Source of the DNA: a bacterium
GTDB lineage: Bacteria; Patescibacteriota; Minisyncoccia; JAHIHE01
NCBI GenBank assembly: GCA_030693205.1
Contig: JAUYBG010000010.1
Location: 2,059-66,058 of the forward strand
DNA: 64,000 nt
Direction: 5' to 3'
Shown: in pieces, positions 1 to 62,420 of the stretch
Position numbering within the stretch: position 1 is the first letter of the stretch
Layout: each line of letters starts with the position of its first letter
Program-made: the position numbers and the translations under genes
The notes under the pieces: model-generated
Told to the model about the DNA's origin: nothing
Seen by the model: only the letters and a program-made list of their open reading frames with translations
Databases searched by the model: none

Positions 1-1033
1 ACCGATTTTTTCCATAGAGGTGTCTACTGAGGCAGGAACTGGTCACAATGCATTTCAAAGATTCGCAAGATTAGCCGCTTCTGTGGAAAATAATGTACCA
101 GCATTTTATATTTACCCAGAAGCAGCAATAATTACAAGACAAAATACTCCTCCGTCTTGGGATAAAATAAATCCGCTAGTTTTTAAAGCGTTAGATGATG
201 TAATGTCTATTTATAAGATTCCAGCACTTTTGTATTACTTCCCGTCTGATTTTCGAGGAAATATTAACAATGCAGCGACATCGCCAAACTTACGCACAAA
301 GGGATTGAGGTTTGATTTAAACCGTCAATTTGCAGGAAGTCCTGACAGTACAGACTCTGAAATGCAGAAAATGTTTTTAGCTATAAATGAAATTATTGAG
401 GTTGTCGAAGATGACGGAGTTATAAATGGGCGTGAAAAATTGCTCAGCAAAAGAACACTTATAGATAGAAAGAATTTCATGCAAAATGAATATTCTAGTA
501 AGGGTGGTAATACAAATATGTCGCCACTTTCCGCAACAGTCAAAATTCCCACTCAGTACCTGCTGAATTATTTATCAGATTTTGAAAATAGCGATTATCA
601 AATAGGTGAATTATTGCGAAGTCGCCAAGAAACAATTGTTTACAAAATCGATGCCGCCTTTCGAGGCGACCCATATCCAGGTGCATTGGCAGCAATTGAT
701 TATTTGGCTTGTCGAGAAGGCAAATCTTTTGAAGAAAGGAAATATAATCTAGTGTTAGCATGGGGTGAATTTTCTATTGATGAACAAAATCAAACAATCG
801 TACTTGGCGGCACTAAGAGTGATGTAAATGACTTTGTAGATGCTGTAAAAGCTAGTGAAAATAAAAACTTACTAACAAAAAATTACTCGGATTTATTAAG
901 CTCGGAAATCCCTCGCTACTATATGCAAGTTAGATATGGTTCTACTTTTTCTAAAGTGAAACATGTAAGAGTATTCTCCTACTTTGCTGACGCAATCTTA
1001 TTTCCTAATGGATCATTATGGAGAGACGCATAA
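1..1033 (+). CDS. Hypothetical protein of at least 337 aa. The reading frame is open to the window start, so it may be 5'-truncated. It sits 5' of, and overlaps, a small nuclease gene.
   Basis: Long ORF (20..1033 in the track, first codon GTG) with no in-frame stop back to position 2. No recognisable catalytic motif. The region is AT-rich relative to the ribosomal genes. It overlaps the next ORF by 16 nt. Confidence 0.5.
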   Translation, partial: PIFSIEVSTEAGTGHNAFQRFARLAASVENNVPAFYIYPEAAIITRQNTPPSWDKINPLVFKALDDVMSIYKIPALLYYFPSDFRGNINNAATSPNLRTKGLRFDLNRQFAGSPDSTDSEMQKMFLAINEIIEVVEDDGVINGREKLLSKRTLIDRKNFMQNEYSSKGGNTNMSPLSATVKIPTQYLLNYLSDFENSDYQIGELLRSRQETIVYKIDAAFRGDPYPGALAAIDYLACREGKSFEERKYNLVLAWGEFSIDEQNQTIVLGGTKSDVNDFVDAVKASENKNLLTKNYSDLLSSEIPRYYMQVRYGSTFSKVKHVRVFSYFADAILFPNGSLWRDA

Positions 1034-1473
1034 GTGAAGAAAGTGTAACAAAAACAATTATTTCTTGGCTTGAGAAAAATGGCTGGAGCATTATCTGCTT
1101 TGATTTTCCACAAAGCGGAACAGGGAAAGTTTTGCATTCAAATAATCGTGCGGGGTTAAAAAATAAAGATTCAATAATTCCAGATATTGTTGCTATAAAA
1201 AATGGTGTCGTGATTTTTTGCGAAAATAAAGATAGGTTTTCTTTTTCCGACTTTCAGAAGGTAGAAAGTATAAAAAAAGAAAATAATTATTCGGACTCTA
1301 TAAATAAACTCCTTTCGTCTTATCAATACACTTCTATTTACTACGGAATCGGTTTGCCAATTACCCCTCAAAATAGAGAAAAAATAAACGAAAGCAGGAC
1401 ACAAGTTGATTTTGTTATTGAATCTAATGGTGGCAATACAAGAGTTGATTATCAAATTAAAAATATTTTTTAA
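1018..1473 (+). CDS. PD-(D/E)xK nuclease-fold protein resembling archaeal Holliday-junction resolvase Hjc or a restriction-endonuclease-like core
   Basis: The pattern E..V..L...GW.V.......SG......IIPDIVAIKNGVVIFCENK matches the Hjc/Mrr-type helix-strand-PD...ExK architecture (D67, E81, K83). It overlaps the upstream ORF by 16 nt, suggesting translational coupling. Confidence 0.5.
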   Translation: MERRISEESVTKTIISWLEKNGWSIICFDFPQSGTGKVLHSNNRAGLKNKDSIIPDIVAIKNGVVIFCENKDRFSFSDFQKVESIKKENNYSDSINKLLSSYQYTSIYYGIGLPITPQNREKINESRTQVDFVIESNGGNTRVDYQIKNIF

Positions 1474-1698
1474 TTTCCAATTTTTTCCTCCCGCCTCTTG
1501 CCAAAACTTTCCCTTTAGTGTATGATTAAAAAGTTGTTTCAGAAGAATCTGAATGTTTTGTTTTGACTCCGGGAAAAGATTGATTTTGGATGAAATTTTG
1601 AAGTGATTATTTCCTCAAAAACAACACAAAACTAGCCCATTTTTTTTATTTTGTCTGAAGCGAAACTGCGTATTTTTAGCGAAAATCGGGGTAGGGGC

Positions 1699-1725
1699 TT
1701 GACTAATTTCCGATACTGTTATAAT
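1699..1725 (+). promoter_or_regulatory. Sigma70-like promoter upstream of tuf (TTGACT, roughly 15-nt spacer, TATAAT)
   Basis: Near-consensus -35 and -10 hexamers about 55 nt upstream of the tuf start codon. Confidence 0.45.
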
Positions 1726-1778
1726 ATATTTAAATACAATATATAATTCATAATTATAAAACAAAATAATATAATACT

Positions 1779-2978
1779 ATGGCAGAAAAATTTGAAAGAG
1801 TAAAACCGCACGTTAATGTCGGAACTATCGGACATGTTGATCACGGCAAGACCACTTTGACCGCGGCAATTTTAAAAAATTTGACAGCAGCTGGAATGAA
1901 AGCGCAAAACAAAGGCGTGGAAGATTTGGATAAGGCTCCGGAATCAAAAGAGCGCGGCATTACTATTGCCACCGCTCACGTGGAATATGAAACCAATGCC
2001 AGACACTATGCGCACGTGGATTGTCCGGGACACGCAGACTATATTAAAAATATGATTACAGGCGCCGCCCAAATGGACGGAGCGATTTTGGTTGTCAGCG
2101 CGGTTGACGGCCCGATGCCACAAACTCGAGAACACATTTTGTTAGCTTATCAGGTTGGTGTTCCTCAGGTTGTGGTCTTTTTGAATAAAGTTGACCAGGT
2201 GGACGACAAAGAATTGGTTGATCTGGTGGAAGAAGAAGTCCGGGAATTGCTCACAAAATATCATTTTGCCGGCGATAAAGTCCGATTTATCCGCGGATCC
2301 GCTTTGCAAGCTCTGGAACACAGCTGCGGCAAGATAGATTGCCCGAAATGCGGTCCGGTCATGGAATTAATGAAAGCTTTGGACGAATCTATTCCTGAAC
2401 CGGTTCGAGATGTCGATAAGCCGTTATTGATGCCGATCGAAGATGTCTTTTCTATTGAAGGAAGAGGCACGGTCGTTACAGGAAGAATTGAAAGAGGCCG
2501 AGTGCATATTGGCGATGAAATCGAGATCGTTGGCTTGAAACCGACCACCAAGACTGTCGCTACCGGCATTGAAATGTTCAATAAATCCCTTGATGAAGGT
2601 TTGGCTGGCGATAACGCCGGAGTGCTTTTGCGCGGCACCAAAAAAGAAGATGTCGAGCGCGGACAAGTTTTGGCCAAGCCCGGATCGATCACTCCTCACA
2701 CCGAATTTGAAGGCGAAGTTTATATTTTGACCAAAGAAGAAGGCGGACGACATACTCCATTTTTCAACGGCTACAGACCTCAATTCTATATCAGGACCAC
2801 TGACGTCACTGGAGAAGCGACTTTGCCAAAAGGCACTGAAATGGTCATGCCTGGCGATACTGTCACAGTCACGGTGAAATTGATCTCCCCGGTCGCGCTG
2901 GAACAAGGAATGAGATTTGCGATTCGCGAAGGCGGACACACTGTCGGCGCCGGAGTAGTTACTAAAACAATCAAATAA
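1779..2978 (+). CDS. tuf: Elongation factor Tu
   Basis: [11 protein letters not shown]-loop, DCPGHADY and NKVDQVDD motifs, and full-length EF-Tu colinearity. A Cys-rich segment ([10 protein letters not shown]) lies in domain 1/2 linker region. Confidence 0.97.
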
Positions 2979-3082
2979 GAGCTCAGCCCTGCACTAAAAC
3001 TGCAGGGTTTAGAGTGTTTTTACGAGTGAAATCGTAATAATTAATAAAATAAAAAGAAAGTCTAAAAGATTTTTACATTAAA

Positions 3083-3451
3083 ATGACAACGACTGCCAAG
3101 AAAGATTCTGGAATAATCAATTCCTCTACAACTAAAGACGAAGAAGTTAAGCCAAGAATTAGAATTAAAATTAGAGCTTACGACAGTAAGATCATTGATG
3201 AGTCCGCAAAATTGATTGCTGAAACTGCCTTGCGCGGAGGCGCCGAGATCAGAGGACCATTGCCGCTTCCGACCGAAAAGAAGAAATACACTGTCAATAA
3301 ATCAACCTTCGTCCACAAGGATGCCAGAGAGCAGTTTGAGATCAGGGTTCACAAGAGATTGATCGATATTATCAATCCGACCCCGAGAATTATTGATTCA
3401 TTGACGAATTTGTCCTTATCAGCCGGAGTGGATATCGAGATCAAGATGTAA
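3083..3451 (+). CDS. rpsJ: 30S ribosomal protein S10 with a roughly 25-aa N-terminal extension
   Basis: RIRIKIRAYDSKIIDES...GPLPLPT...HKRLIDI consensus. Confidence 0.93.
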   Translation: MTTTAKKDSGIINSSTTKDEEVKPRIRIKIRAYDSKIIDESAKLIAETALRGGAEIRGPLPLPTEKKKYTVNKSTFVHKDAREQFEIRVHKRLIDIINPTPRIIDSLTNLSLSAGVDIEIKM

Positions 3452-6592: not shown

Positions 6593-7036
6593 ATGCCAGT
6601 AAAAGTTTACCTAAAAAATTTAAGAACAGCTCCCCGCAAAGTCCGGTTGGTTGCCGATCTCATCAGAGGATTAAGAGTTGATGAAGCGATGGAACAATTG
6701 AAATATATTCCCAAAAGAGCGGCTGTGCCTGTAATGAAACTCCTGGAATCGGCAGTGGCGGCGGCGGAGAATGATTTTAAAATGAAAAAAGAAGATCTGT
6801 TTATTTCAAAAATAACCGTTGATGACGGCGCGACCCTGAAAAGATCCATGCCGCACGCGATGGGCCGGGCTTTCCCGATATTGAAAAGAACGAGCACTGT
6901 CACTATCGAGCTCGATAAAAAAGCCGTAGAGCTGGAAGCGCTGGAAGAAAAAAAATCGGAAGAATCTCGGGAAGTTTTGGCAGGGGAAGCGAAAGAAGAA
7001 GCGCTGAAAAAAAGAAAAAGTAAAAAACAAGAATAA
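6593..7036 (+). CDS. rplV: 50S ribosomal protein L22 with a charged C-terminal extension
   Basis: Sequence LRTAPRKVRLVADLIRG...AMEQLKYIPKRAA. Confidence 0.93.
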   Translation: MPVKVYLKNLRTAPRKVRLVADLIRGLRVDEAMEQLKYIPKRAAVPVMKLLESAVAAAENDFKMKKEDLFISKITVDDGATLKRSMPHAMGRAFPILKRTSTVTIELDKKAVELEALEEKKSEESREVLAGEAKEEALKKRKSKKQE

Positions 7037-7057
7037 TTAATCCATTTTAAACTTGCT

Positions 7058-7750
7058 ATGGGACACAAAGTAAATCCGTTATTATTTAGACTAGGCTACA
7101 CTGTCAATTGGACGAGCCGCTGGTTTGGCGACAAAAACTTTCCGGAACTTCTGAAAGAAGATTTTGGCATTCGAAAGATCCTTATGGAAAATTTGAAAAA
7201 AGCGGCAGTGGAAAAAATTATCATCGACAGGGCGTCTAACGTTGTCACGATCTCCATTCTTTCCGCGAGGCCCGGAGTCATAATCGGACGGGGCGGAACC
7301 GGCATCGAGGATCTGAGAAAAATGCTGAAAACGAAGCTTGGATTGAAAAAAGAAGTTAAACTTGATGTGCTCGAAGTGAAAGATCCGGAATCCAGCGCGG
7401 CGATCATCGGGCAGGAAATTGCCAGTCAGATCGAGCGGAGGATCGGCTGGAAAAGAGCCCTGAAAAGAATGCTGGAAACGGTAATCAGCAAAAAAGGAGT
7501 TCAGGGAATAAAGATCGCGATCTCCGGGCGGCTTGATGGGGCGGAAATGGGCAGGCGAGAATGGCTCGCCAAAGGAAAAATTCCCTTGCACACGCTTCGA
7601 AGCAATATTGATTTTACCAGAGCGACGGCTTTTACGACTTATGGCGCGGTAGGGATAAAAGTTTGGGTGTATAAGGGCGAAGTGTTTGACGAAAAAGCGG
7701 AGGCGAAAAAAAGCAAAAAAATAAATAGTACTTCTACTCCAATTAAATAG
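7058..7750 (+). CDS. rpsC: 30S ribosomal protein S3
   Basis: [23 protein letters not shown] start and KH-domain region. Confidence 0.95.
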
Positions 7751-7776
7751 TTCAGTACAAGCAAATAAAACTAAAT

Positions 7777-8199
7777 ATGTTGATTCCAAAAAAAGTAAAA
7801 CACAGAAAACAGCAAAAAGGCAGACGGAGATTTTCCGGCGTGGCCAGCCGCGGCACTGATCTGAATTTTGGCAGCTACGGAATTAAAGCTCTCGAGACTT
7901 CGTGGGTTTCCGCCAGGCAGCTCGAAGCGGTAAGAAGGGTTTTGACCAGATACACCAAGCGCGGCGGAAAAATATGGATCAGGGTTTTTCCCGATAAGCC
8001 GATAACGGTCAAAGGATCAGAAGTTCCGATGGGCGGAGGAAAAGGCTCTACTGATCATTTTGTGGTCGCTATCAAGCCAGGAAGAGTTTTGTTTGAGATC
8101 GACGGCGTAACCAGAGAGGAAGCCCGGGAATCGATGAGGCTTGCTTCGCACAAACTTCCCATTAAAGTGAAATTTATTGAAAAGCAGCACGCTAACTAA
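7777..8199 (+). CDS. rplP: 50S ribosomal protein L16
   Basis: [18 protein letters not shown] start and synteny. Confidence 0.95.
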
Positions 8200-12942: not shown

Positions 12943-14214
12943 ATGTTTGATAAAATTTTAAAGATTTTTCAAATAAAAGAGCTTCGCAATAAGATTCTGT
13001 ATGTCCTGGGGATAATGATCGTTTTTCGGTTGGCTTCGCATTTTCCCGTACCGGGAGTCGATACTGAAAAATTGCGGGCTTTTTTTGAGAATAACCAGCT
13101 TTTTGGCTTGCTTAATTTATTTTCCGGAGGCGGACTTTCAAGCCTTTCAATCGTAATGCTTGGAGTGGGTCCGTATATCACCAGTTCCATTATTATGCAG
13201 CTTTTGACAATGATCTTCCCTTCTTTTAAGGAAATGTATCACGAGGGTGGAGAAGCGGGAAGGCAAAAATTTAATCAATATTCAAGAATTTTGACAGTGC
13301 CGTTGGCTTTGCTCCAGGGATATGGAATGATAAAATTATTTCAGAATCAGGGAGTTCTTGATATTATGAGCAATCAGACGATGATCTATACCTTGGTTGT
13401 GATTACCGCTGGAACAATATTTTTAATGTGGCTGGGAGAATTGATCACTGAACAAGGCATTGGAAATGGCATATCTTTGATAATTTTCGCCGGAATTGTT
13501 TCGCAAATGCCGGAAACAGCGATAGGGAAGCTTACTTTAATGGACGCGAGTCAGATCCCGGGATATATAATATTCTTGGTTTTTTCGGTATTAGTTGTCG
13601 CCAGCGTCGTTTTGGCCAACGAAGCCCAGAGAAATCTTCCCGTTTCTTACGCCAAAAGGGTGCGGGGCGGAAAAATGTACGGCGGGGTGAATACTTATTT
13701 GCCGCTGAAGGTAAATTCTGCCGGAATGATCCCGATAATTTTCGCGATGTCGATAATGCTTTTTCCCGGCATGATCGGTTCTTTTTTGGTTACATCCAAA
13801 TATCCCGCGGTCGCATCCGCCGCCGTTTACATTGTTGCATTGTTTGAAAATCAAACTTTTTATGGAGCGATGTATTTTATCATGGTAGTGTTGTTCACAT
13901 TTTTCTATACGGCGGTAGTTTTCGAACCGCATACGGTCAGCGAGAATTTGCAAAAACAAGGCGGTTTTATCCCGGGGATCAGGCCGGGAAATCCGACCAA
14001 GGAATATTTATCCTACGTGATCAACAGGATCACTTTGGCCGGCGCGGTTTTCTTGGGATTGATAGCGGTTTTGCCGTTTATCGGGCAAGCGTTCACGGGG
14101 GATACCAGCTTAGTATTGGGAGGCGCGGCGGTATTGATCGTCGTTGGCGTGGTGCTTGATACGGTCCGCCAGATCGAAGCGCAGATCGTAACCAAAGATT
14201 ACGAACAGTATTAA
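12943..14214 (+). CDS. secY: Preprotein translocase subunit SecY
   Basis: 423 aa with 10 TM segments, LRNKILYVLGIMIVFRL start and a GIGNG motif region. Confidence 0.95.
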   Translation: MFDKILKIFQIKELRNKILYVLGIMIVFRLASHFPVPGVDTEKLRAFFENNQLFGLLNLFSGGGLSSLSIVMLGVGPYITSSIIMQLLTMIFPSFKEMYHEGGEAGRQKFNQYSRILTVPLALLQGYGMIKLFQNQGVLDIMSNQTMIYTLVVITAGTIFLMWLGELITEQGIGNGISLIIFAGIVSQMPETAIGKLTLMDASQIPGYIIFLVFSVLVVASVVLANEAQRNLPVSYAKRVRGGKMYGGVNTYLPLKVNSAGMIPIIFAMSIMLFPGMIGSFLVTSKYPAVASAAVYIVALFENQTFYGAMYFIMVVLFTFFYTAVVFEPHTVSENLQKQGGFIPGIRPGNPTKEYLSYVINRITLAGAVFLGLIAVLPFIGQAFTGDTSLVLGGAAVLIVVGVVLDTVRQIEAQIVTKDYEQY

Positions 14215-14305
14215 ACGCAAGTTCAATAAAACCGTAAAAATATAAAGTTTTTATCAGGTTATTTAAAATTTTAATTTTATAATCTTAGGGATTTTATAAA
14301 ATCTT

Positions 14306-14977
14306 ATGTCTCCATTTGTTATTACTATTATCGGTCCTCCGGGTTCGGGCAAGGGCACGCAAGGAAAAGTCGTTGCTCAAAAATATAATTTAAATCACAT
14401 CGGTGTTGGAGATCTCGTAAGACAGTTGATCGTTCTTGATACGCCGCTAGGCAAAAAAGCAAAAGATAATTATGATAAAGGAGTTCCCCAGCCGGATGAA
14501 ATTATTATTCAGGCTGTTAAGGAAAAAATAGAAAAAATGTCCGCGAGTCAGCGGAAAAAAGGTTTTCTTTTTGATACCTTTTTGTCTTTTAATCAGGCGA
14601 AAGCGTTCGATGAAGTTTTAAAAAATTATGATTTGCCGGGAAGTTTAGCTATTTATTTGAATATTAGCGCCGATACTGTCATTGAAAGAACCGAGAAACG
14701 GCTCATTTGTTCAAAATGCGGCGCTGTTTTTTTGTCCAAAGATCCGGCTTATAATACTGGGAAGTGTGACAAGTGCGGCGGGGATCTGATGGTCCGAAGC
14801 GATGATAAGCCCGAAGTGGTGCGTCGAAGGATTGAAGAATATAAATCAAGAATGCTGGATCTGAAAAAATATTATCAGGACAGAAAAAGGCTGATCGTCA
14901 TTAATGGCGAGCCTGCAATTGAGGAAATTCACAAGGATATTATTAAAAAGATAAATGAATTTCACAAAACCAAATAA
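14306..14977 (+). CDS. adk: Adenylate kinase with a Zn-lid type LID domain
   Basis: GPPGSGKGTQ P-loop, CSKCG...CDKCGG lid and RRRIEEY. Confidence 0.9.
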   Translation: MSPFVITIIGPPGSGKGTQGKVVAQKYNLNHIGVGDLVRQLIVLDTPLGKKAKDNYDKGVPQPDEIIIQAVKEKIEKMSASQRKKGFLFDTFLSFNQAKAFDEVLKNYDLPGSLAIYLNISADTVIERTEKRLICSKCGAVFLSKDPAYNTGKCDKCGGDLMVRSDDKPEVVRRRIEEYKSRMLDLKKYYQDRKRLIVINGEPAIEEIHKDIIKKINEFHKTK

Positions 14978-15623
14978 TTTGATCATTTTAGGCCCTTCCG
15001 GCTCGGGCAAGGGAACTCAAGCTGAACTTTTAGCGCGGAAATTTGATCTGAAAATGGTGGATGGCGGAGAATATTTAAGAAGCATTCTGGCCTCAAAAAG
15101 CGGTGCTTTTAAAAAATTGGCGGAAAAAATGAACAAAGGCAATCTGGCTCCTACTGATATAATCAGAGATTGGATAAAGAAGCAGGTTTTCGGAAAACCT
15201 ATCAGCCGCGGATTGATCTTTAGCGGACAGCCCAGGATGATCGGCGAGGCAAAACTGACATTGAAATGGTTTCGGGAAAGCAAGCGGGGAGTGCCAGTAG
15301 TGATCTTTTTAAAAGTTTCAGCGCGAGAAGTGCTGAAGCGTCTGGCAAAAAGATATATTTGCGAAAAATGCAAAAAAGTATATACTTTAAATGAATTTCC
15401 CAAGAAGCCTTGCGGAGCTTGCGGAGGAAAAATTATCAAGCGCGCCGACGATACGCCGAAATTGATACGGAACAGATTGGCATATTTTCGCGAACAGGTG
15501 GCGAAAACTTTGGAATTTTTTAAGAAAAAAGGAATTTTGATCGAGATAAACGGCGAGCAAGGAGTAGCTTTAGTAAATCGGGAAATACTAAAGAAAATTA
15601 GCGATCATTTCCGTCGTAATTAA
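14955..15623 (+). CDS. Second adenylate-kinase-family paralogue with a Zn lid, overlapping adk by 23 nt
   Basis: GPSGSGKGTQ P-loop, CEKCKKVY...CGACGG lid, and RADDTPKLIRNRLAYF. Confidence 0.85.
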   Translation: MNFTKPNNLIILGPSGSGKGTQAELLARKFDLKMVDGGEYLRSILASKSGAFKKLAEKMNKGNLAPTDIIRDWIKKQVFGKPISRGLIFSGQPRMIGEAKLTLKWFRESKRGVPVVIFLKVSAREVLKRLAKRYICEKCKKVYTLNEFPKKPCGACGGKIIKRADDTPKLIRNRLAYFREQVAKTLEFFKKKGILIEINGEQGVALVNREILKKISDHFRRN

Positions 15624-35544: not shown

Positions 35545-36349
35545 AATAGGCATTTAGAGAGAAAAACCATCATTAAACTAATTATTAGGGACAGAGACGG
35601 AAACTTTTATTTTATAAATTATTTTATGGAATATTTAACGACAACCTACCAGGAAAGGAAGCGCAAAAGTTAAACGTCATTATTTTAGTTTTATTAATTG
35701 CCCGCTTCCAAGAGAAAGACGGGTTTTTTAGTTAAAAAAAATAAATTTGTGTGAAAATTGCAGTACATTAAAAATAATGTATCGCAATTTCTACACAACA
35801 GTTTGGGTAGAAAGTTCGCTTACAATTTATATTTATTATAGTCTTAAATCGTCAAGAGGATATTTATTTGCTCTGATCTGCCAATTTGGCGGAACAATGC
35901 GGGTAAGATATTCTAAAGTAAACAACCCCGAACCAATCTGCCAGCGAGCAGATGCTACGGGGTAAAAATCTTCAAAACTAGTAATCGCTGATTGCTAGTT
36001 AAAGTAAAAATGAAAAACTCATACTAAGAGTATATGGTGGATGCCTTGACATAAAAAGTCGATGAAGGACGTGGTGTAACTACGAAAAGCCTCGGTGAGC
36101 CGTTAACAGGCCGTGACCCGGGGGTATCCGAATGGGGAAACCCTTCTGAGTAAACCTCAGAAATTATTATCTGAATTAAGTAGGGTAATAAAGAGAACCT
36201 AGGGAAGTGAAACATCTCAGTACCTAGAGGAAAAGAAAAAAATGTTAATATTGATAACGGTGGCAGACATTATTTATTTAATGCCTACATCGGTATCGGT
36301 ATTATTTATTCCCTGAGTAGTGGCGAGCGAAATGGGAAAAGCCTAAACC

Positions 36350-36592
36350 TCTCGATGCGTGACATCGGAATTTTCAAGCACCAATTTTCAAGCACCAAAC
36401 AAAATTTAAATAACCAAAATTCAAAACTCCAAACAAATTGGAATTTAGAAAATTGGGATTTGGAATTTGATTGGGATTTGGAATTTGGGATTTGGAGCTT
36501 CCGCTGTTGCGCAGCGGGTGGTGTTGCAAGGTGGGTGCGTTATCGGAGTAATCCGGTACAGAGCTAACTAAATGTAATTTGATTAGTCAAAT
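36350..36592 (+). repeat. Roughly 220-nt expansion segment with tandem repeats inside the 23S 5' domain
   Basis: It lies between the conserved GAGCCTAAACC and TTCCTGGAAAGGACG. It contains ttttcaagcacca repeated twice and gggatttggaattt-like units repeated three times. Confidence 0.7.
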
Positions 36593-36762
36593 GTTCCTGG
36601 AAAGGACGACCAAAGAGGGTGATAGTCCCGTAGATGAAAATCATTACATGCTCTGAGTATCTATTCTTAAGTACCATAGGGCCAGAGAAACCCTATGGGA
36701 ATCCGGCAGTACTACTAACTTTGTCGCAAGACAAACTGCCAAGGCTAAATACTTTTTATGAT

Positions 36763-36799
<37 letters not shown>

Positions 36800-38252
36800 T
36801 AGCCCGTTTAGGGCAGTGAAATAGAAACTGAAATCATATACTTACAACGAGTGGGAGCCTTGCTTCGGCAGGGTGACCGCGTGCTTTTTGCAGAACGAAC
36901 CAACGAGTTTGCTAGGTATTGCAAGTCTAAGCTCTTCGGAGCGGAGGCGTAGTGAAAGCGAGGGTTAAATACCCGTTTAGCAATACTTACAAGACCCGAA
37001 ACCAGGTGAGCTAGCCATGAGCAGGATGAACCTCAACGAAAGTTGAGGGGAGGTCCGAACCCATTAGCCGTGCAATACTATGGGATGACTTGTGGTTAGG
37101 GATGAAATTTCAATCGAACTTGGTAATAGCTGGTTCTCTCCGAAATAGCTATAGGGCTAGCGTCCTTTGTTCCACTTTGGGGGTAGAGCACTGAATGGAC
37201 ACGGCTGGACTTTTGTCTACCTTGTCCAAACAAACTCCGAATACCAAAGTGCCAGAGAAGGGCAGTCAGAACGTGAGGGCTAAGCTTCACGCTCAAAAGG
37301 GGAACAGCCCAGATCGTCGTCTAAGGTCCCTAAATCTATGCTAAGTGATTTTAAGGAAGTGAGGTTTCTTAAACAGCTAGGAAGTTGGCTTAGAAGCAGC
37401 CATCTTTTAAAGAGTGCGTAACAGCTCACTAGTCTACTGAAATCTTGCGCCGAAAATGTCCGGGGCTAAGCATAGTACCGAAGACACGGGTTGTCATGTC
37501 CTCCGGGATGTGGCAGCGGTAGGAGAGCGTTCCATACGCAGTGAAGTCTGAGCGCGAGTAAAGATGGAGTGTATGGAAGTGAGAATGTTGGTATGAGTAA
37601 CATGAATTATGGTGAGAAACCATAACACCGAAAGCTTAAGGTTTCCTGGGCAACGAAAATCAACCCAGGGTTAGTCGGTCCTAAGGCGAGGTCGAAAGAC
37701 GTAGTCGATGGATAGCTGGTTAATATTCCAGCACTACTATATGTCATGATATGGAAGGACGCAATGTGGGAGGTTGGGCACATTATTGGATTTGTGTCAA
37801 TATCTTGTAGGCTGATTCGCGAGGCAAATCCCGTGGATCTTTGAAAGCAATTTCATAAAAGCCGAGAGATGTTGGAACTTCTGCCTAAGGGCGGGAGAAC
37901 CTAACTGGGGTCATGTTGCCAAGAAAATTTTCTAATTTATCATATAGTAACCGTACCGCAATCCGACACAGGTGAGCAGGCATCAGCGTGCCAAGGTGTA
38001 CGGGAGAACTCTTGTTAAGGAATTCGGCAAAACAACGGCCGTAACTTCGGGATAAGGCCTGCCTATCGCAAGATAGGCTGCAATAAAAGAAATCAGGGCG
38101 ACTGTTTAACAAAAACACAGGTCTATGCTAACCCGCAAGGGGATGTATATGGGCCGACGCTTGTCCAGTGTCAGAACGTTAAGGTTGGAAGTGAAAGCTT
38201 TCGGCTGAAGCGCTGATGAACGACAGCGGTAACTATAACCGTTCTAAGGTAG

Positions 38253-38630
38253 TGGATTTACTTAAGGAAGTGAATTCACTAGGATTGGAACGGCTATAGG
38301 GAGAACAGTCAAGGAAAAAAAGTAGCTGCCCATTTCTGTAAAAAGAAATGTCCATTTGGCCATATGCTGGAAACTCTGGTGAATCTGATGTTACTATGGT
38401 ATAATACGCACATAGACAATATGAGAAAATATTATGCCGAGTAAAAATACATTCAGTGCAGACAATCAGCAGGAAAGGCCAGAAATATTATAATATTTCT
38501 GGAATCCTCAGAGATCAAACGCCAAAACCATTGATAGAAAGATGGTAAGATATGACCCTATCTCTATGGCGACATAGAGGGATATCAACAAATATCCATT
38601 TCGTTTAATGACGGAATAAAAACAAATGAG
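38253..38630 (+). other. Roughly 378-nt insertion in 23S rRNA at the conserved GGUAG|CGAAAUUCC site. It is a candidate ORF-less group I intron or an intervening sequence.
   Basis: The conserved flanks are contiguous in typical 23S rRNAs. The insert is AT-rich with no long ORF. Confidence 0.6.
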
Positions 38631-39191
38631 CGAAATTCCTTGTCACTTAATTAGTGACGTGCATGAATAGCGGAACGACCCTGGTACTGTCTCAACAAGT
38701 GACCCGGTGAAATCGCATTAACAGTGAAGATGCTGTTTACCTGCAGCTAGACGAAAAGACCCTATGAAGCTTTACTATAACTTGGTATTGAGCCAAATTT
38801 TGAAATGCTTAGAATAGGTGGGAGACTTCGATCCTTAATCTCCGGATTAAGGGGAGTCGCAATATGAAATACCACTCTTTTTACAATTTTGTTCTAACCT
38901 CATACCGTAATCCGGTATAGGAACAGTGCCTGGCGGGTAGTTTGACTGGGGCGGTTGCCTCCTAAAAAGTAACGGAGGCGTTTAAAGGTCGGCTAGGCGC
39001 GGATGGAAATCGCGCTGATAGCGCAAAAGCATAAGCCGGCTTTACTGTGAGACTGACGGGTCGAACAGTTGCGAAAGCAGAATTTAGTGATCCGATGTGT
39101 CCATGTAGGTGGCACAAAGCTCAACGGATAAAAGCTACTCTAGGGATAACAGGCTAGTCCAGTCCAAGCGTCCATAGCGACGACTGGGTTC

Positions 39192-39227
<36 letters not shown>

Positions 39228-39775
39228 AAGAAGCTCCCAAGGGTTTGGCTGTTCGCCAACTAAAGCGGTACGTGAGCTGGGTTCAAACCGTCGTGAGACA
39301 GGTTGGACTCCTATCTACTGCAGGCGTAGATACTTGCGAGAACTCTTTTCTAGTACGAGAGGACCGAAAAGAACGAACCTCTGGTGCACCAATTGTCATG
39401 CCAATGGCATAGTTGGGTAGCTAAGTTCGGACGAGATAAACGCTGAAAGCATATAAGCGTGAAACTCATCTCAAGATTAGGTATCATAGATTCCAGAGAG
39501 ATGATCTGGTAAAATTCTGTCGCAAGACAGAACTGATAGGGTGCAGGTGTAAGTGTAGCAATACATTCAGCCGAGCACTACTAATGAATCATTGGAGTTT
39601 TTCATAACTTACTTTAACCGGCAATTAGCGGGTGTTATGAGAAGATAATGTTTATGATTGATTTGAATACTATATAAATATAAATTTAAGGGAATACGAA
39701 TTTTAGGTATTTACCCCGTTAAATAAAATTTTAATAAATTTTGGATTGTTTTTTTTACAATTCATTTAATAGGGG

Positions 39776-40303: not shown

Positions 40304-40421
40304 TGCCCCGGTGCTATAATGGCGGTAATGTACCACCTCTTCCCATTCCGAACAGAGTCGTGAAAGTTACCAGCGCCGATGGTAGTTGGTTTACCAGCGA
40401 GAGTAGGCCAGTGCCGGGGCA
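40304..40421 (+). rRNA. rrf: 5S rRNA
   Basis: TGCCCCGGTG...CCATTCCGAAC...GCGCCGATGGTAG...GAGAGTAGG...CCGGGGCA. Confidence 0.9.
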
Positions 40422-56486: not shown

Positions 56487-56558
56487 TGCCGATGTAGCTC
56501 AGTGGTAGAGCAACTGTTTTGTAAACAGTAGGTCGTCGGTTCAAATCCGACCATCGGC
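56487..56558 (+). tRNA. tRNA-Thr (anticodon TGT)
   Basis: Cloverleaf folded by hand. GCCGATG acceptor, GCTC/GAGC D-stem, ACTGT/ACAGT anticodon stem with loop TTTGTAA, and GTCGG-TTCAAAT-CCGAC T-arm. No encoded CCA. Confidence 0.85.
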
Positions 56559-56560
56559 TC

Positions 56561-56643
56561 CGGGCGGATACCGAAGTAGTCAAACGGGGCAGACTGTAAA
56601 TCTGCTGACCTAGGTCTTCGATGGTGCAAATCCATCTCCGCCC
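56561..56643 (+). tRNA. tRNA-Tyr (anticodon GTA) with a long variable arm
   Basis: GGGCGGA acceptor, anticodon loop CTGTAAA, long variable arm, and GATGG-TGCAAAT-CCATC T-arm. Confidence 0.85.
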
Positions 56644-56676
56644 ACAGATAGATTTTGGTTATTGAAAGCATAGTAG

Positions 56677-56749
56677 TGCCGTTGTAGCTCAGTTGGCAGA
56701 GCAATTCCTTGGTAAGGAGTAGGTCTCGGGTTCGAGTCCCGACAACGGC
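56677..56749 (+). tRNA. tRNA-Thr (anticodon GGT)
   Basis: GCCGTTG acceptor, anticodon loop TTGGTAA, and TCGGG-TTCGAGT-CCCGA T-arm. Confidence 0.85.
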
Positions 56750-56937
56750 TCAAGAAAATACTGCCTTCCGGGGCAGTATTTAAAATTTATGGCAATCTTT
56801 AAAACGGACGAAAAGTCATTGATGAATTCGAAATAAGCTAAGATAAGGGAAAATATGGAATTTGCCGCGTAACCCTTGATAAAATATTTAGTTTGTGGTA
56901 AAGTTAAGATAATAATAGCTATTGAACAAAACTCTTA

Positions 56938-57543
56938 ATGGGCGGCGCCAAAGAGGGTTTTCTGTTTTGGCATAGAAAATTTAAAAAAGGAAAATGCACA
57001 CCGCGAATCGTTCCAAATAATTTAATGAAGAACTTTTTAATAAAAATTATCGCAGTTTCAATTATTGGATCTTTGGCGGGAGGGTCGCTGTTTTATCTTT
57101 GGAAAAATAAATACGCATTTTCCAAAGATCAGATCATAATCGAAGAAGACCTGAGCAATAAAATTGAAAAAAAAGATTCGCAAAAAATGGAAGACGACAA
57201 GAAAATTTCCGACGGAATAGCCGCGATAATCAATTATGTGGAAAAGAATATTAACAAGATTTCTCCTGAAAAGCCGGCCAGCGGATTAACTTGGCGTTCC
57301 GTGAAAATTTGGTTTATCGATGATAAGAATTTTTATGTGGATTACAATGATGAAGTACTGAATGCCAGAAGAGTCTTGATGTCCCAATCAGTTTCGGGAC
57401 CGGCGGCGGAGTATAAGGTTCTGGGATTTTTTATTCCGGGGGAAAATGGCTGGATATTGAAATCAGGCAAAGATATCGGAGGGGCGACATCTCTTAAATT
57501 ATACGAGAAGAACGAGACAAGCAGCGAATGGATAATTAAATAA
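56938..57543 (+). CDS. Hypothetical membrane-anchored protein. The likely start is 57025 (MKNFLIK).
   Basis: ORF with an N-terminal TM after the internal Met. Confidence 0.45.
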   Translation: MGGAKEGFLFWHRKFKKGKCTPRIVPNNLMKNFLIKIIAVSIIGSLAGGSLFYLWKNKYAFSKDQIIIEEDLSNKIEKKDSQKMEDDKKISDGIAAIINYVEKNINKISPEKPASGLTWRSVKIWFIDDKNFYVDYNDEVLNARRVLMSQSVSGPAAEYKVLGFFIPGENGWILKSGKDIGGATSLKLYEKNETSSEWIIK

Positions 57544-57559
57544 TTATTAAATAAAGATT

Positions 57560-57715
57560 ATGTCACAAGAAAGACTAACAAAGATGAAATGCACGGTTTG
57601 CAAAAAAATCGGATATTTTACTTTTAAAAGCAAAGAAGCGGCGAAAGAAAAATTAGAATTGAACAAGTTCTGCAAATTTTGCCGAAAACATACTCCGCAC
57701 AAAGAATCCAAGTAA
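57560..57715 (+). CDS. rpmG: 50S ribosomal protein L33 (51 aa, zinc ribbon). It is absent from the ORF track because it is shorter than 60 aa.
   Basis: Translation MSQERLTKMKCTVCKKIGYFTFKSKEAAKEKLELNKFCKFCRKHTPHKESK has the CxxC...CxxC motif and sits in the classic rpmG-tRNA-Trp-secE-nusG context. Confidence 0.8.
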   Translation: MSQERLTKMKCTVCKKIGYFTFKSKEAAKEKLELNKFCKFCRKHTPHKESK

Positions 57716-57752
57716 TTTCGTTTGGCGCTAAAAAGGTTTACGCAACCTTTTT

Positions 57753-57823
57753 AGGAGTGTAATTCAGTGGCAGAATGCCGGTCTCCAAAACCGGATACGG
57801 GGGTTCGATTCCCTCCACTCCTG
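57753..57823 (+). tRNA. tRNA-Trp (anticodon CCA)
   Basis: AGGAGTG acceptor, CCGGT-CTCCAAA-ACCGG anticodon arm, and GGGGG-TTCGATT-CCCTC T-arm. Confidence 0.85.
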
Positions 57824-57925
57824 CTAGAAAAAAAAGGGGGGGGGTGAGGGAGAGAACTGGGAAAGGGATCGGCAAACCAAGAAGATAATTTTTTATCAAC
57901 TAAATAGCGCGGTCTAATTAAATAT

Positions 57926-58645
57926 ATGGCAGAGAAATTAAAAAATATTCCAAACCATATTGCTTTTATACCTGATGGCAACCGCCGATGGGCCGCGAAT
58001 CATATGATGGAAGTTTGGAAAGGGCACGATAAAGGAACTTCAGTCGTTAAAGAGATGATCAAAGAAGCGGTCAGGATGAAAATTCCACATTTTTCTTTTT
58101 GGGGTTCTTCTCTGGACAATATTGCCAAGCGCTCAAAAGAAGAAGTTTCATATTTGTTTAAAATATTTAAAAATAATTTTACAGACCTGGCAAAAGACAA
58201 AGACATCCATCAGAACAAGATCAGGGTGAATGTTTTCGGCCGATGGCGTGAATTGTTTCCCGAAGATGTTAAGAAAGCGATTGAACACGCGATAGAGGTG
58301 ACCAAAGAATACAATGAACATTTTTTTAATGTTTTTCTGGCATATAGCGGAATTGATGAAATGGAAGAGGCGGTCAGAAAAATATCGGAAGAAGCGATAA
58401 AAAATCCGAAAATAAAAATTACGGTTGAAACGATTAAAAACTATCTTTTTACCAGGCAATTGCCGAAGGTTGATTATTTGATACGAACCGGAGGAGATCC
58501 TCATTTGTCGGGGGGGTTTATGATGTGGGAAACTGCGGACACTCAGTTGTATTTTTTGGATAAATATTGGCCGGATTTTACGGTGGAAGATTTTCGCACG
58601 GCGATTGAGGAATATGGCAGGCGGCAAAGAAAATTTGGCGCATAA
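57926..58645 (+). CDS. uppS: Undecaprenyl-diphosphate synthase (cis-prenyltransferase)
   Basis: HIAFIPDGNRRWA and the conserved cis-IPPS regions. Confidence 0.9.
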   Translation: MAEKLKNIPNHIAFIPDGNRRWAANHMMEVWKGHDKGTSVVKEMIKEAVRMKIPHFSFWGSSLDNIAKRSKEEVSYLFKIFKNNFTDLAKDKDIHQNKIRVNVFGRWRELFPEDVKKAIEHAIEVTKEYNEHFFNVFLAYSGIDEMEEAVRKISEEAIKNPKIKITVETIKNYLFTRQLPKVDYLIRTGGDPHLSGGFMMWETADTQLYFLDKYWPDFTVEDFRTAIEEYGRRQRKFGA

Positions 58646-58661
58646 ATATTTTAACGACCAT

Positions 58662-59288
58662 ATGAACTCATCAAAACAATTAATTGATGATCTGATCAAT
58701 GAAGGGTATCTTATGACCCCGCGCATCATTGATGCGTTTAGAAAAATAGATCGCGCGGATTTCGTGCCGGAAGAATCAAAGTCGGAAGCTTATGTTAATG
58801 CCCCTTTGCCTATCGGATACGGACAGACGATCTCTCAGCCACTGACAGTGGCTTTTATGTTGGAATTGTTAAAACCGGAAAAAGGGGATAAAATACTGGA
58901 TATCGGTTCGGGATCCGGCTGGCAGACCGCGCTTTTGGCCGAGATTGTGGGCGCAAGCGGCCAGGTATTCGGACTTGAGATCATCAAAGCGCTTAAAGAA
59001 TTCGGGAAAAAAAACGTTGCCAAGTATGGTTTTATCGAAAAAGGAATCGCAAAGATCATTCCCGTTAATGGCTCCATAGGATTCGAAAAAGAAGCGCCTT
59101 TTGACAAGATCATCGTCGGAGCTATGTCATCCATCGCGCCCAAAACTTTTTTGGGGCAACTGAAGATCGGAGGCCGTCTCGTGATACCATACGCGGGGAG
59201 CGTGTGGCTTCTCGTAAAAAAATCGGAAAAAGAATTTGAAGAATATGAATATCCGGGATTCGTTTTTGTGCCGCTAGTTGCTAAGTAA
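58662..59288 (+). CDS. pcm: Protein-L-isoaspartate O-methyltransferase
   Basis: ISQPLTVAFMLELL, ILDIGSGSGWQTA and VGA motifs. Start moved to the first ATG after the uppS stop. Confidence 0.85.
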   Translation: MNSSKQLIDDLINEGYLMTPRIIDAFRKIDRADFVPEESKSEAYVNAPLPIGYGQTISQPLTVAFMLELLKPEKGDKILDIGSGSGWQTALLAEIVGASGQVFGLEIIKALKEFGKKNVAKYGFIEKGIAKIIPVNGSIGFEKEAPFDKIIVGAMSSIAPKTFLGQLKIGGRLVIPYAGSVWLLVKKSEKEFEEYEYPGFVFVPLVAK

Positions 59289-59315
59289 TTTAAGGATTTT
59301 GCTTTATTATTCATT

Positions 59316-60347
59316 ATGTCTATACAGAAAATTAATTTTATTATAATAATTTTATTATTTGCTTCGGCGGCAATAACTGCCGGCATGTATTTTTATGTCG
59401 CGGATCAAGTTGAAAAGCCCGTCGAGAAAATAGGTTTTTACAGGAATTTTATAATTTCAACAGGCGAAAGCGCCAGGCAAATCGGCGAGAATTTAGCCAA
59501 GGAAGGCCTTATCAAAGATTCTTTTTATTTTAAATTCTATCTTTGGAAATCGGGACTGAAAAGTTCGATCAAGGCCGGCGAGTATAATTTGTCTTCGGCG
59601 ATGAACATTCCCGGAATCGTGGATATCATTTCAAAAGGAAAAATTGTCGAGAAGGAAGCCACCGTTTTTATCCCTGAAGGGCTTACCAGCGCGGAAATAG
59701 AAGAAATTTTTGTTGAAAATGATTTATTAAAAAAAGGCCAGCTTGAAGAGGCTGTACAGGAAAAAAATTTAAAAAGGTATTATAAATATGATTTTTTGCT
59801 TGATAAGCCGAAAGGCGCGAGCTTGGAAGGATATCTTTTTCCCGATACTTACATTTTTTACAAAAAAACGACTTCGGAGGAAATTATCGAAAAAATCCTT
59901 AATAATTTTGACAAGAAAGTTGATTTGGAAATGCGAGCCGAAATAGCCAGGCAGGGCAAAACAATTTTTGAAGTCTTGACTCTCGCTTCGATCGTACAGG
60001 AAGAGGCCAACGGCGCCAGCGATATGAAGATTGTCGCGGGGATTTTTCAAAATCGCCTGGCTATGGGGAAAGCCCTGGAAGCCGATTCAACAATAAACTT
60101 TATTACCAAAAAGAATATGTCTCAGGCGCTTTATTCGGATCTGGAAATTTCTTCGCCGTATAATACTTACAAAAATATCGGATTGCCTCCGGGACCCATA
60201 GATAATCCCGGACTTGATGCGGTAAGAGCCGTAATTTGGCCGAAAAAGACTTCTTATCTGTATTTTTTGCACGCTCCGGACGGAAAGGCTTATTATGGCA
60301 ATACTTATGAGGAACATTTAAAAAATCGGGCAAAATATCTTAATTAA
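59316..60347 (+). CDS. mltG: Endolytic murein transglycosylase MltG (YceG-like)
   Basis: N-terminal TM, LASIVQEEA and GLPPGPI signature motifs. Confidence 0.88.
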   Translation: MSIQKINFIIIILLFASAAITAGMYFYVADQVEKPVEKIGFYRNFIISTGESARQIGENLAKEGLIKDSFYFKFYLWKSGLKSSIKAGEYNLSSAMNIPGIVDIISKGKIVEKEATVFIPEGLTSAEIEEIFVENDLLKKGQLEEAVQEKNLKRYYKYDFLLDKPKGASLEGYLFPDTYIFYKKTTSEEIIEKILNNFDKKVDLEMRAEIARQGKTIFEVLTLASIVQEEANGASDMKIVAGIFQNRLAMGKALEADSTINFITKKNMSQALYSDLEISSPYNTYKNIGLPPGPIDNPGLDAVRAVIWPKKTSYLYFLHAPDGKAYYGNTYEEHLKNRAKYLN

Positions 60348-60361
60348 AATAACGCGGAAAA

Positions 60362-61003
60362 ATGCTTAAGTCGGTAAATAAAATTATTAAAGTTTTAGTG
60401 CTCGGAGACGCTTTTTTGAATAGCGGCTGGGGTTTGATAGCGCCTGTTTTTGCGATTTATATAATTCAAAATATCAAGGGAGGGGATATAATGGTGGCAG
60501 GTTTTGCCGCAGCGGTTTATTGGATCGTGAAAAGCATTATTCAGATGCCATTCGCGAAATATCTCGACAGGAACCATGGAGAAAAGGATGATTTTTATGC
60601 GGTATTTTTTGGCTTATTGCTGGTCAGCTTGGTTCCTTTGGGCTATATGGTTTCGACGCTGCCATGGCACATATACGCGTTTCAAATTTTGTACGCGATC
60701 GGGATGGCATTGGTGGTTCCTGCCTGGTTCGGGCTTTATACCAGGCATATTGATAAAGGGAAAGAAGCGTATGAATGGAGCGTTTATAGCACTTCTTTTG
60801 GTTTTATAGCGGGGATTTCCGGCGCTATTGGCGGAGTGATCGCGGCGGCGATCGGATTCAAGATTATTTTTTTACTGATCAGCTTTTTTACGATTATGGC
60901 GGCGACCATTTTTTATTCCCTTCGCGACGAGATCACAGCGGTTCATATTCATAATACCAGTGTAAAAGCGGTCGATGTGCCAGCTGAAAAATTGCGTTTT
61001 TAG
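60362..61003 (+). CDS. Hypothetical six-TM membrane protein (MFS-half-like)
   Basis: Six hydrophobic helices. Confidence 0.45.
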   Translation: MLKSVNKIIKVLVLGDAFLNSGWGLIAPVFAIYIIQNIKGGDIMVAGFAAAVYWIVKSIIQMPFAKYLDRNHGEKDDFYAVFFGLLLVSLVPLGYMVSTLPWHIYAFQILYAIGMALVVPAWFGLYTRHIDKGKEAYEWSVYSTSFGFIAGISGAIGGVIAAAIGFKIIFLLISFFTIMAATIFYSLRDEITAVHIHNTSVKAVDVPAEKLRF

Positions 61004-61175
61004 GCTCTTAATTTATCATAAAACTCTTTATATTAAAGGTTGTTTGACAGGGTTGACATTAAATTGGCAATGAAGTATAATGGATTTAGATATAAAGTAA
61101 AACCCAAGCGAGGGTTTTTTAAAATCCCCCAGCTTTATAGTGGTTAGTTTGAGTCAGTAATGTAAAAAGAAACAT

Positions 61176-61373
61176 ATGAATATTATAGAAAAACCGATTA
61201 ATTTTTTTAAGGAAGTAAAAATAGAGCTTACTAAAGTAACCTTTCTTTCAAGAGAGGACCTGATCAAGAATACCATGTCCGTTATTTTGGTCAGTATCGC
61301 ATTTTCTATTTTTTTAGGCGGAGTGGATTATATTTTTATGTATTTAATCAAGACGTTTTTATTGAAAATTTAA
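61176..61373 (+). CDS. secE: Preprotein translocase subunit SecE
   Basis: 65 aa with a single C-terminal TM, located immediately upstream of nusG. Confidence 0.85.
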   Translation: MNIIEKPINFFKEVKIELTKVTFLSREDLIKNTMSVILVSIAFSIFLGGVDYIFMYLIKTFLLKI

Positions 61374-61374
61374 T

Positions 61375-61917
61375 ATGTCAAAACAAGTACAACAAGGCAA
61401 GAATTGGTACGCGATCCATACTTATTCGGGTTATGAAGACAACGTGACGCGAAATTTAATGCAGCGCATTGAATCTATGGGTATGGAGGATAAGATCCTC
61501 AATGTATTAGTGCCAAAAGAAAAGAAGATAAAGATCAAAGCGGGAAAAAGAAAGATCATCGAAGAAAGAATTTTCCCCGGTTATGTTTTGGTGGAAATGA
61601 TCGTCACCGATGATTCTTGGTACGTGGTTAGGAACACGCCGAATGTTACCGGATTTGTCGGTTCGGGCACGACTCCTACCGCGGTTTCGCCGGAAGAAAT
61701 TGAAGTTATAAAAAAGAGAATGGGCGTTTCGGAACCTAAATACAAGATCGATGTGGCAAAAGACGATGCGGTAAAAATTGTCGATGGTCCTTTCAAGGGA
61801 TTTGACGGCAAGGTAAGCGAAGTGGACGAAGAAAAAGGAAAGATAAAAGTTTTGGTTTCTATGTTTGGCAGAGAAACACCGATCGAATTAGACTTTTTAC
61901 AAATTAAGAAAATATAA
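61375..61917 (+). CDS. nusG: Transcription termination/antitermination factor NusG
   Basis: NWYAIHTYSGYE NGN domain and a C-terminal KOW (VKIVDGPFKGFDGKV). Confidence 0.93.
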   Translation: MSKQVQQGKNWYAIHTYSGYEDNVTRNLMQRIESMGMEDKILNVLVPKEKKIKIKAGKRKIIEERIFPGYVLVEMIVTDDSWYVVRNTPNVTGFVGSGTTPTAVSPEEIEVIKKRMGVSEPKYKIDVAKDDAVKIVDGPFKGFDGKVSEVDEEKGKIKVLVSMFGRETPIELDFLQIKKI

Positions 61918-61926
61918 AATAAAAAT

Positions 61927-62355: not shown

Positions 62356-62420
62356 ATAATATATTAATTTAATTTGTGGGAGTTTTTTTAAAAAACGTTC
62401 GTACCACGAAAGGAAAAAAT

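Follow-up and report, generated by a model that had tools for sequence, protein, structure and literature searches.

A putative split two-nuclease restriction endonuclease of the BtsI and BsrDI type encoded upstream of tuf in a Patescibacteriota genome

Introduction

A 64,000-nt stretch of a Patescibacteriota metagenome-assembled genome (MAG; GenBank assembly GCA_030693205.1, contig JAUYBG010000010.1), hereafter the window, begins with two overlapping genes on the + strand that lie upstream of tuf and encode a large protein of 411 amino acids (aa) and a small protein of 151 aa. We consider it probable, at roughly three chances in four, that these proteins are the two subunits of a split heterodimeric restriction endonuclease of the BsmI / Mva1269I / BsrI / BtsI / BsrDI class, divided as in BtsI and BsrDI. 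The pair is a new, unannotated member family of a known architecture and not a new kind of defence mechanism. A first-pass annotation of the same DNA had described the genes as an orphan restriction or defence-type module or as a new nuclease-partner system. What it observed is partly confirmed, as the gene pair and the overlap stand while the size given for the first open reading frame (ORF) and the statements on its motifs do not; its interpretation is likewise partly supported, for a restriction-type nuclease pair and against an orphan or new system.

Organization of the gene pair

The features on which the argument draws are as follows (positions are those of the window).

1..1033, + strand: 3' part of the large-subunit gene (codons 69-411 and stop), identified by its open frame, its identity with Q8N37_01810 and the BsmI fold match
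17..61, + strand: the part of the non-canonical catalytic site (Cb) that lies within the window, E74 (17-19), Q87 (56-58) and R88 (59-61), identified by conservation and BtsI B spacing
1018..1473, + strand: small-subunit gene, 151 aa, PD-(D/E)xK nuclease, proposed top-strand subunit (Ct), identified by ORF, model and linkage
1180..1230, + strand: canonical motif of the small subunit, P55 D56 (1180-1185) and E69 N70 K71 (1222-1230), identified by invariance and BtsI A spacing
1018..1033, + strand: 16-nt overlap, with the start of the small gene within the end of the large gene, identified by ORF coordinates and recurring in relatives
1474..1488, no strand: right-hand end of the sequence shared by cassette copies, identified by alignment of the window with L001 and L002

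The large-subunit frame has no stop ahead of the GTG at nt 20 and stays open from nt 2 until the TAA at 1031-1033. The first protein, previously given as 337 aa, therefore corresponds to the last 343 codons of a 411-aa protein, and the suspicion that its frame continued past the window start was justified, as the first 68 codons, including those for P59 and D60, lie beyond the edge. The residues encoded in the window (69-411) are 100% identical to P0001, which is the NCBI MAG protein Q8N37_01810 (195,904-bp contig). The small ORF starts with an ATG at 1018, runs on the same strand for 151 codons to 1473, and its product is identical to Q8N37_01815. The 16-nt overlap of the two same-strand genes likely couples the translation of the two subunits, and the earlier description of a translationally coupled nuclease pair of restriction or defence type is in this respect retained.

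The AT-richness reported for the pair was reproduced, with a GC content of 34.5% compared with 39.8% in the rest of the window, and only 6.5% of equal-sized windows are as low. Similarly, the GC content at third codon positions is 0.27 and 0.25 for the two genes versus 0.46 for tuf.

Nuclease sites and predicted folds

Each of the two proteins contains one conserved nuclease site. In the large subunit, P59, D60, E74, Q87 and R88 are invariant in 41 homologues, and the site that they form, D60-X13-E74-X12-Q87R88, has the same spacing as that of BtsI B (D58, E72, Q85/R86). In the small subunit, D56, E69 and K71 are invariant in 116 diverse representatives sharing 26-51% identity; the site, P55 D56-X12-E69-N-K71, is spaced as in BtsI A (D65, E78, K80), and a basic residue is found two positions past the lysine (R73 here, K82 in BtsI). 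Mutagenesis has established that D58/E72/Q85R86 of BtsI B are needed for bottom-strand nicking, and D65/E78/K80 of BtsI A were also mutagenised (PMC1950550). The E...PD...ExK core noted earlier in the second protein is thus present (E7/E8, P55 D56, E69 and K71), whereas the first protein, in which no motif had been recognised, contains a PD-X13-E-X12-QR nuclease motif and has a fold that matches BsmI. A further pattern in the large subunit, D301...E313-R-K315 (D-X11-E-x-K), was considered as a second site and rejected because K315 is not conserved, being R in P0110.

The AlphaFold2 model of the large protein has a predicted local distance difference test score (pLDDT) of 78, with a low-confidence prediction for the C-terminal 60 residues. 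When this model was compared with the PDB by Foldseek, the only matches with E <= 0.001 were four BsmI entries (9f38, 9ez7, 9ezd and 9ez5; E 2e-9 to 2e-8, probability 1.00), and the next match had an E of 0.018 and a probability of 0.08. BsmI has a bottom-strand nuclease at its N terminus and a FokI-like top-strand nuclease at its C terminus, separated by a central domain of unique fold (PMC11889245), and the 411-aa protein is about as big as the N-terminal and central domains together. The model of the small protein (pLDDT 90.6) matched generic PD-(D/E)xK domains, such as XisH, the R2 element endonuclease, Nt.BspD6I (FokI-like) and Bax1, which bears out the nuclease fold proposed for this protein. 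Family profiles were less informative: scans of both proteins against Pfam, NCBIfam and PADLOC gave nothing above threshold, and the comparison with known defence systems in PADLOC returned no match for either protein at E <= 1.

Linkage to a C5 methyltransferase in relatives

The genomic context of the pair was surveyed in two search directions, from the small protein to a sample of 80 species-representative genome loci and from the large protein to a sample of 80 metagenome contigs. Neighbours were scored in loci with room, that is, loci whose contig extends far enough to hold the neighbour gene. The large gene is directly upstream of the small gene in 80/80 species-representative loci and the small gene directly downstream of the large gene in 76/76 metagenome loci, so the co-occurrence of the pair extends to 156/156 related loci. 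The junction between the genes in the metagenome loci is -16 nt in 54 of the 76 and -13 nt in 9 more.

A gene for a C5 methyltransferase (PF00145) is found directly upstream of the large gene in 77/77 metagenome and 74/76 species-representative loci. The two exceptions (L029 and L082) have no C5 methyltransferase within 5 kb, and their nuclease genes are still paired. The methyltransferase gene is on the same strand as the pair, often 0-5 nt away, in about 150 loci from many phyla, and this adjacency indicates linkage at the operon level rather than co-location in an island. In addition, the methyltransferase, large and small proteins split together into the same two subgroups. The family of relatives thus has the adjacent cognate methyltransferase by which Type II restriction-modification systems are assigned. 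The closest copies occur in groundwater metagenomes (large protein 98% identical), a Taibaiella genome has one at 78%, and in both a PF00145 methyltransferase of 386-419 aa lies immediately upstream, followed by the 411-aa gene and the overlapping small gene. At one locus (L166), a gene for a 66-aa HTH_3 controller-like protein is located 4 nt before the methyltransferase gene.

The first-pass annotation saw no methyltransferase because the window edge cuts through the large gene; its statement is correct within the window and fails for the relatives, in which the methyltransferase is the next gene upstream, and the counts above are incompatible with an orphan module. Judged from sequence and gene order, the cassette is a restriction-modification unit of methyltransferase, large subunit and small subunit. 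By analogy with the relatives, an intact methyltransferase gene would be expected just off the window edge in this genome.

Two kinds of departure from the usual arrangement were observed. Some Clostridia MAGs have an expanded cassette (L024 1298-6401, also L051; partly L012, L014, L041 and L155), in which an 813-aa ORF joins a C5 methyltransferase, in frame, with an additional large-subunit paralogue (49% identical, with PD-X17-E-X12-QR intact). Downstream of this ORF come the regular large subunit, the only small subunit and another C5 methyltransferase that differs from the first. Because there are two large subunits and two methyltransferases but one small subunit, the small subunit may be shared. 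In L001, a 69-kb ENA contig with a 98% identical large subunit, the genes for the methyltransferase, an aminotransferase and a Mur ligase (6834-7992 and 13560-15611) are split into two to three short ORFs, which look like assembly frameshift errors rather than real pseudogenes.

The two subunits have not diverged evenly. Compared with the closest copy (L002), the large-subunit gene of the window has a DNA identity of about 93%, whereas the last 270 nt of the small gene (window 1200-1473, L002 2685-2958) are 71-75% identical; at the protein level, the corresponding values are 98% against 74%. This contrast suggests that the C-terminal half of the small subunit is mosaic, through recombination, or fast-evolving.

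Likely target site

The family core RNTG/CANY, together with a single C5 methyltransferase that needs a cytosine on both strands, leads to the expectation of a degenerate palindrome such as CASTG, and CASTG, which contains this core, was named as the expected target before any counting. K-mers were then counted in the host DNA that flanks the cassette in carriers (0.8 Mb), and observed-to-expected ratios (O/E) were derived from a maximal-order Markov expectation for 512 five-mers, with the following results.

All carrier flanks: CACTG/CAGTG O/E 0.66, rank 3 of 512
Clostridia-type carriers, 185 kb: CASTG O/E 0.36, rank 1 of 512, 27/28 loci below expectation
Remaining carriers: CASTG O/E 0.72, rank 5 of 512, 56/74 loci below expectation
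E. coli K-12 control, 50 kb: CASTG O/E 0.93, rank 137
This window: CASTG O/E 1.02, 56 sites, rank 273

No extra flanking base beside CASTG was specifically avoided in the carrier flanks. A CASTG specificity is plausible for a C5 enzyme, since M.TspRI is a known m5CASTG methyltransferase (PMC3141236). These observations point to CASTG (CAGTG/CACTG), protected as m5CASTG, as the likely target.

Comparison with characterised enzymes and proposed mechanism

BtsI (GCAGTG 2/0) and BsrDI (GCAATG 2/0) are heterodimeric Type IIS enzymes and represent the split form of the class (Xu et al. 2007, PMC1950550). Their large subunit has a (P/A/F)D-X13-17-E-X12-QR site and nicks the bottom strand alone, while the small subunit has a PD-Xn-ExK site and is required for the top-strand cut (PMC1950550). 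Because this layout of a large and a small nuclease has already been published for the two enzymes, the pair described here does not qualify as a new nuclease-partner system. In BtsI, part of the top-strand domain resides in the large subunit, according to a passage in PMC2909958. As in the present cassette, BtsI has two separately encoded subunits in a restriction-modification cluster, and both motif spacings are identical; the comparison with BtsI and BsrDI covered motifs, subunit sizes and gene arrangement, and no sequence similarity was detected outside the motifs. The small subunit is about 150-165 aa in both BtsI-type enzymes and the present cassette (the class is described with about 18-25 kDa), and the large and small subunits measure 328 and 164 aa in BtsI versus 411 and 151 aa here. 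The gene order differs: here the methyltransferase, large and small genes follow one another and the two nuclease genes overlap, while the BtsI genes lie apart and in divergent orientation. The site also differs in length, with 5 bp (CASTG) predicted here compared with 6 bp in BtsI and BsrDI.

BsmI and Mva1269I (GAATGC 1/-1) are single-chain enzymes with two catalytic domains; they have one nuclease site per strand and cleave sequentially, the logic proposed here, and BsmI is the sole confident fold match of the large subunit. BsmI is one chain of 676 aa, whereas in the cassette a protein of 151 aa takes the place of the second nuclease domain, and HMMER detects no sequence similarity to BsmI. 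A functional parallel exists in Nt.BspD6I with its small subunit (also Nt.BstNBI), in which a small PD-(D/E)xK subunit complements a large nickase that recognises the site, as proposed here. The Nt.BspD6I nuclease domain is among the fold matches of the small protein, but the large subunit of Nt.BspD6I has a different fold, about 600 aa and the site GAGTC, and gives no fold match to the large subunit of the cassette. TspRI has a single C5 methyltransferase, as the cassette does, and its site, CASTG, is the one that k-mer avoidance points to; the likeness covers site and methyltransferase type. TspRI cuts both strands outside its site, leaving 9-nt overhangs. It has been listed as a single unclassified palindrome-type enzyme (PMC2441816).

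The strand cut by each site and the interaction of the subunits can be proposed by analogy with BtsI, BsrDI and BsmI. The 411-aa large subunit, with its DNA-recognition region, would recognise the site and use its N-terminal nuclease centre (P59 D60, E74, Q87 R88) to nick the 'bottom' strand. On its own, the 151-aa small subunit would be inactive; it would dock on the DNA-bound large subunit, possibly through the C-terminal 60 residues of the latter. Its own site (P55 D56, E69-x-K71) would then cut the other strand, producing a double-strand break at or next to the recognition site. The linkage of the two genes in 156/156 loci is consistent with double-strand cleavage that needs both subunits, though it is no proof of this. 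Host DNA would be protected by the C5 methyltransferase encoded immediately upstream, and the overlapping start and stop codons may keep the two subunits in step.

Alternative explanations

It would be surprising, although not extraordinary, if the 411-aa protein were a complete enzyme alone and the 151-aa protein an analogue of Vsr that nicks the T:G mismatches resulting from 5-methylcytosine deamination. C5 methyltransferases are known to be accompanied by Vsr-type genes of about 150 aa, and such a methyltransferase is encoded in the cassette; in addition, the small protein falls within the restriction-endonuclease-like fold class, and in its own genome its C-terminal half has diverged more rapidly than has the large subunit. 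Yet no Vsr (PF03852) match of the small protein was found in Pfam or NCBIfam at E <= 1, and no Vsr structure is among its top 50 fold matches. The small protein has the canonical, invariant ExK lysine, which to our knowledge Vsr lacks. Its gene overlaps the nuclease gene, not the methyltransferase gene, and keeps its place beside the large gene at loci that lack a nearby methyltransferase (L029 and L082). Further, the large protein has one conserved nuclease site but resembles a family that needs two. The small protein has also been called a 'Holliday junction resolvase' in some JGI annotations, and among solved structures it is most similar in sequence to archaeal Hjc proteins (E 0.002-0.003), which have a similar size and the E...PD...ExK core in common with it. 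The PDB Hjc matches (E 0.002-0.06) are confined to the 27-30 residues of the PD...ExK hairpin, and the Pfam Hjc profile (PF01870) scores E 0.038 and 14.4 bits, below its cut-off of 21.1, over residues 48-74 only. The earlier term 'Hjc-like' is therefore accurate as a resemblance of the catalytic hairpin and not as family membership. No Hjc is among the top 50 fold matches, the gene is strictly linked to a large nuclease gene in bacteria with resolvases of their own, and both context and predicted role differ from those of Hjc. Hjc-related nuclease domains are already known in restriction enzymes, and BpuJI is cited as one such enzyme in a passage of PMC2441816. It can hardly be credited on this evidence that the small protein is a true Holliday-junction resolvase of the Hjc type, serving recombination or element mobility.

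It is also very improbable that the pair forms a stand-alone, methylation-independent defence or toxin module whose co-location with a methyltransferase is incidental in defence islands. Such a module would agree with the window, in which no methyltransferase is visible, with the silence of PADLOC, Pfam and NCBIfam on both proteins, with the two loci that have no C5 methyltransferase within 5 kb, and with the absence of this MAG's methyltransferase from the best 120 homologues. It does not account for a methyltransferase that is immediately adjacent and on the same strand in about 150 loci across phyla, nor for the parallel split of all three proteins (methyltransferase, large and small) into the same pair of subgroups. 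Architecture and motifs agree with those of a restriction enzyme class that has been characterised, and carriers avoid CASTG, at which a known m5C methyltransferase acts.

A split enzyme of the BtsI and BsrDI type is itself opposed by several observations. The BsmI match of the large subunit has a template modelling score of 0.41 over the query and a root-mean-square deviation of 11 Å, which shows that domain placement differs. When all PDB sequences (BsmI included) were searched with phmmer and with a profile by hmmsearch, neither the single large-protein sequence nor the profile detected a homologous chain, and no BsmI match appeared at E <= 10, so that the predicted link of this protein to BsmI rests on a predicted structure and a short motif. 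BsmI is missing from the top 50 PDB fold matches of the small-subunit model. A search of the small-subunit profile against 1.84 billion representatives found no small-large fusion protein among the best 150 of 295 representatives, all of which are stand-alone proteins of about 140-170 aa, and Rosetta-stone support is thus lacking among them. BtsI and BsrDI use two amino-methyltransferases rather than one C5 methyltransferase, and when the closest relative's methyltransferase was used as query, the best 120 homologues included no intact methyltransferase from the contig of the Q8N37 MAG. The depletion of CASTG is suggestive only, as E. coli K-12 served as its sole control, and the site is undepleted in the window itself (O/E 1.02, 56 sites). 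The latter fits a recent arrival of the cassette and lends no support of its own.

Spread and mobility of the cassette

The cassette is distributed patchily and widely. Hosts include Bacteroidota, Bacillota, Acidobacteriota, Gracilibacteria, Neisseriaceae, Arcobacter, Elusimicrobia, Bifidobacteriaceae, Chlorobiota and others, and the best matches of the large protein, drawn from candidate-phyla-radiation MAGs, Bacteroidota, Bacillota, Neisseriaceae and others, are 73-100% identical. When the window is aligned with L001 and L002, homology stops about 15 nt past the stop codon of the small gene, beyond which the flanks differ and are host-specific. Genes for large serine recombinases (Resolvase + Recombinase + Zn_ribbon_recom) adjoin the cassette in unrelated hosts (L166 8118-9996 and L082 8133-9857), and the recombinase region of L082 also holds YqaJ and RecD-like helicase genes. 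The cassette may travel on small integrative or prophage-like elements. Searches of PLSDB plasmids and INPHARED phages found no homologues, and IMG/VR contained only 3.

Cross-phylum identity, low GC content, differing flanks and recombinase neighbours together indicate a mobile cassette. On the strength of these sequence features, the unit is a horizontally transferred cassette that was inserted just upstream of tuf in this genome, and the pair is not a conserved housekeeping pair.

Surrounding genes

The position of tuf downstream of the pair, as given by the first-pass annotation, was verified: tuf occupies 1779..2978 and is followed by the S10 operon, and the 305-nt spacer between the small-subunit gene and tuf contains promoter-like hexamers. 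No fusA, rpsL or rpsG signature was found anywhere in the 64,000-nt window, and an Rfam scan of 1-3200 found no RNA element. This tuf (1779-2978) is the sole EF-Tu/EF-G-type GTPase signature of the window. The region 56488-63113 contains genes for tRNA-Thr, tRNA-Tyr and tRNA-Thr, a 201-aa ORF, rpmG (57560-57715), tRNA-Trp, uppS ... secE, nusG, rplK and rplA; the slot between the tRNAs and rpmG/secE, which is the tuf site in many bacteria, is empty of tuf here.

The 23S rRNA match at 36012-39605 is 3594 nt long compared with a 2925-nt model and thus includes about 670 nt of insertions, which are intervening sequences or introns of the kind common in candidate-phyla-radiation bacteria. A 5S gene follows at 40307-40419, and the 16S gene is absent from the window. 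The most depleted tetramer in 1474-64000 is GGCC (O/E 0.53, z -9.9), which may point to a restriction-modification system of the HaeIII type, present in another part of the genome or at some time in its past.

Implications

About 1,260 large-subunit and about 295 small-subunit clusters (at 50% identity) at present carry the label 'hypothetical protein' or the incorrect name 'Holliday junction resolvase'. Both subunits are missed by Pfam, NCBIfam and PADLOC, and their recognition as BtsI-type proteins repairs this annotation. More tentatively, and as a guess that we would not yet favour over its negation, they may constitute an uncharacterised, multi-phylum family of split CASTG enzymes with one m5C methyltransferase, in which the large subunit is a nickase for a 5-bp site and the small subunit of the Clostridia cassettes is shared and interchangeable. 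Enzymes of this class have large subunits that act as natural site-specific nickases, and a new specificity that requires only one m5C methyltransferase would be of use as a reagent. For the organisms themselves, the cassette is a clear case of very recent transfer across phyla, between candidate-phyla-radiation bacteria, Bacteroidota and Firmicutes, that has come to lie beside a core translation operon.

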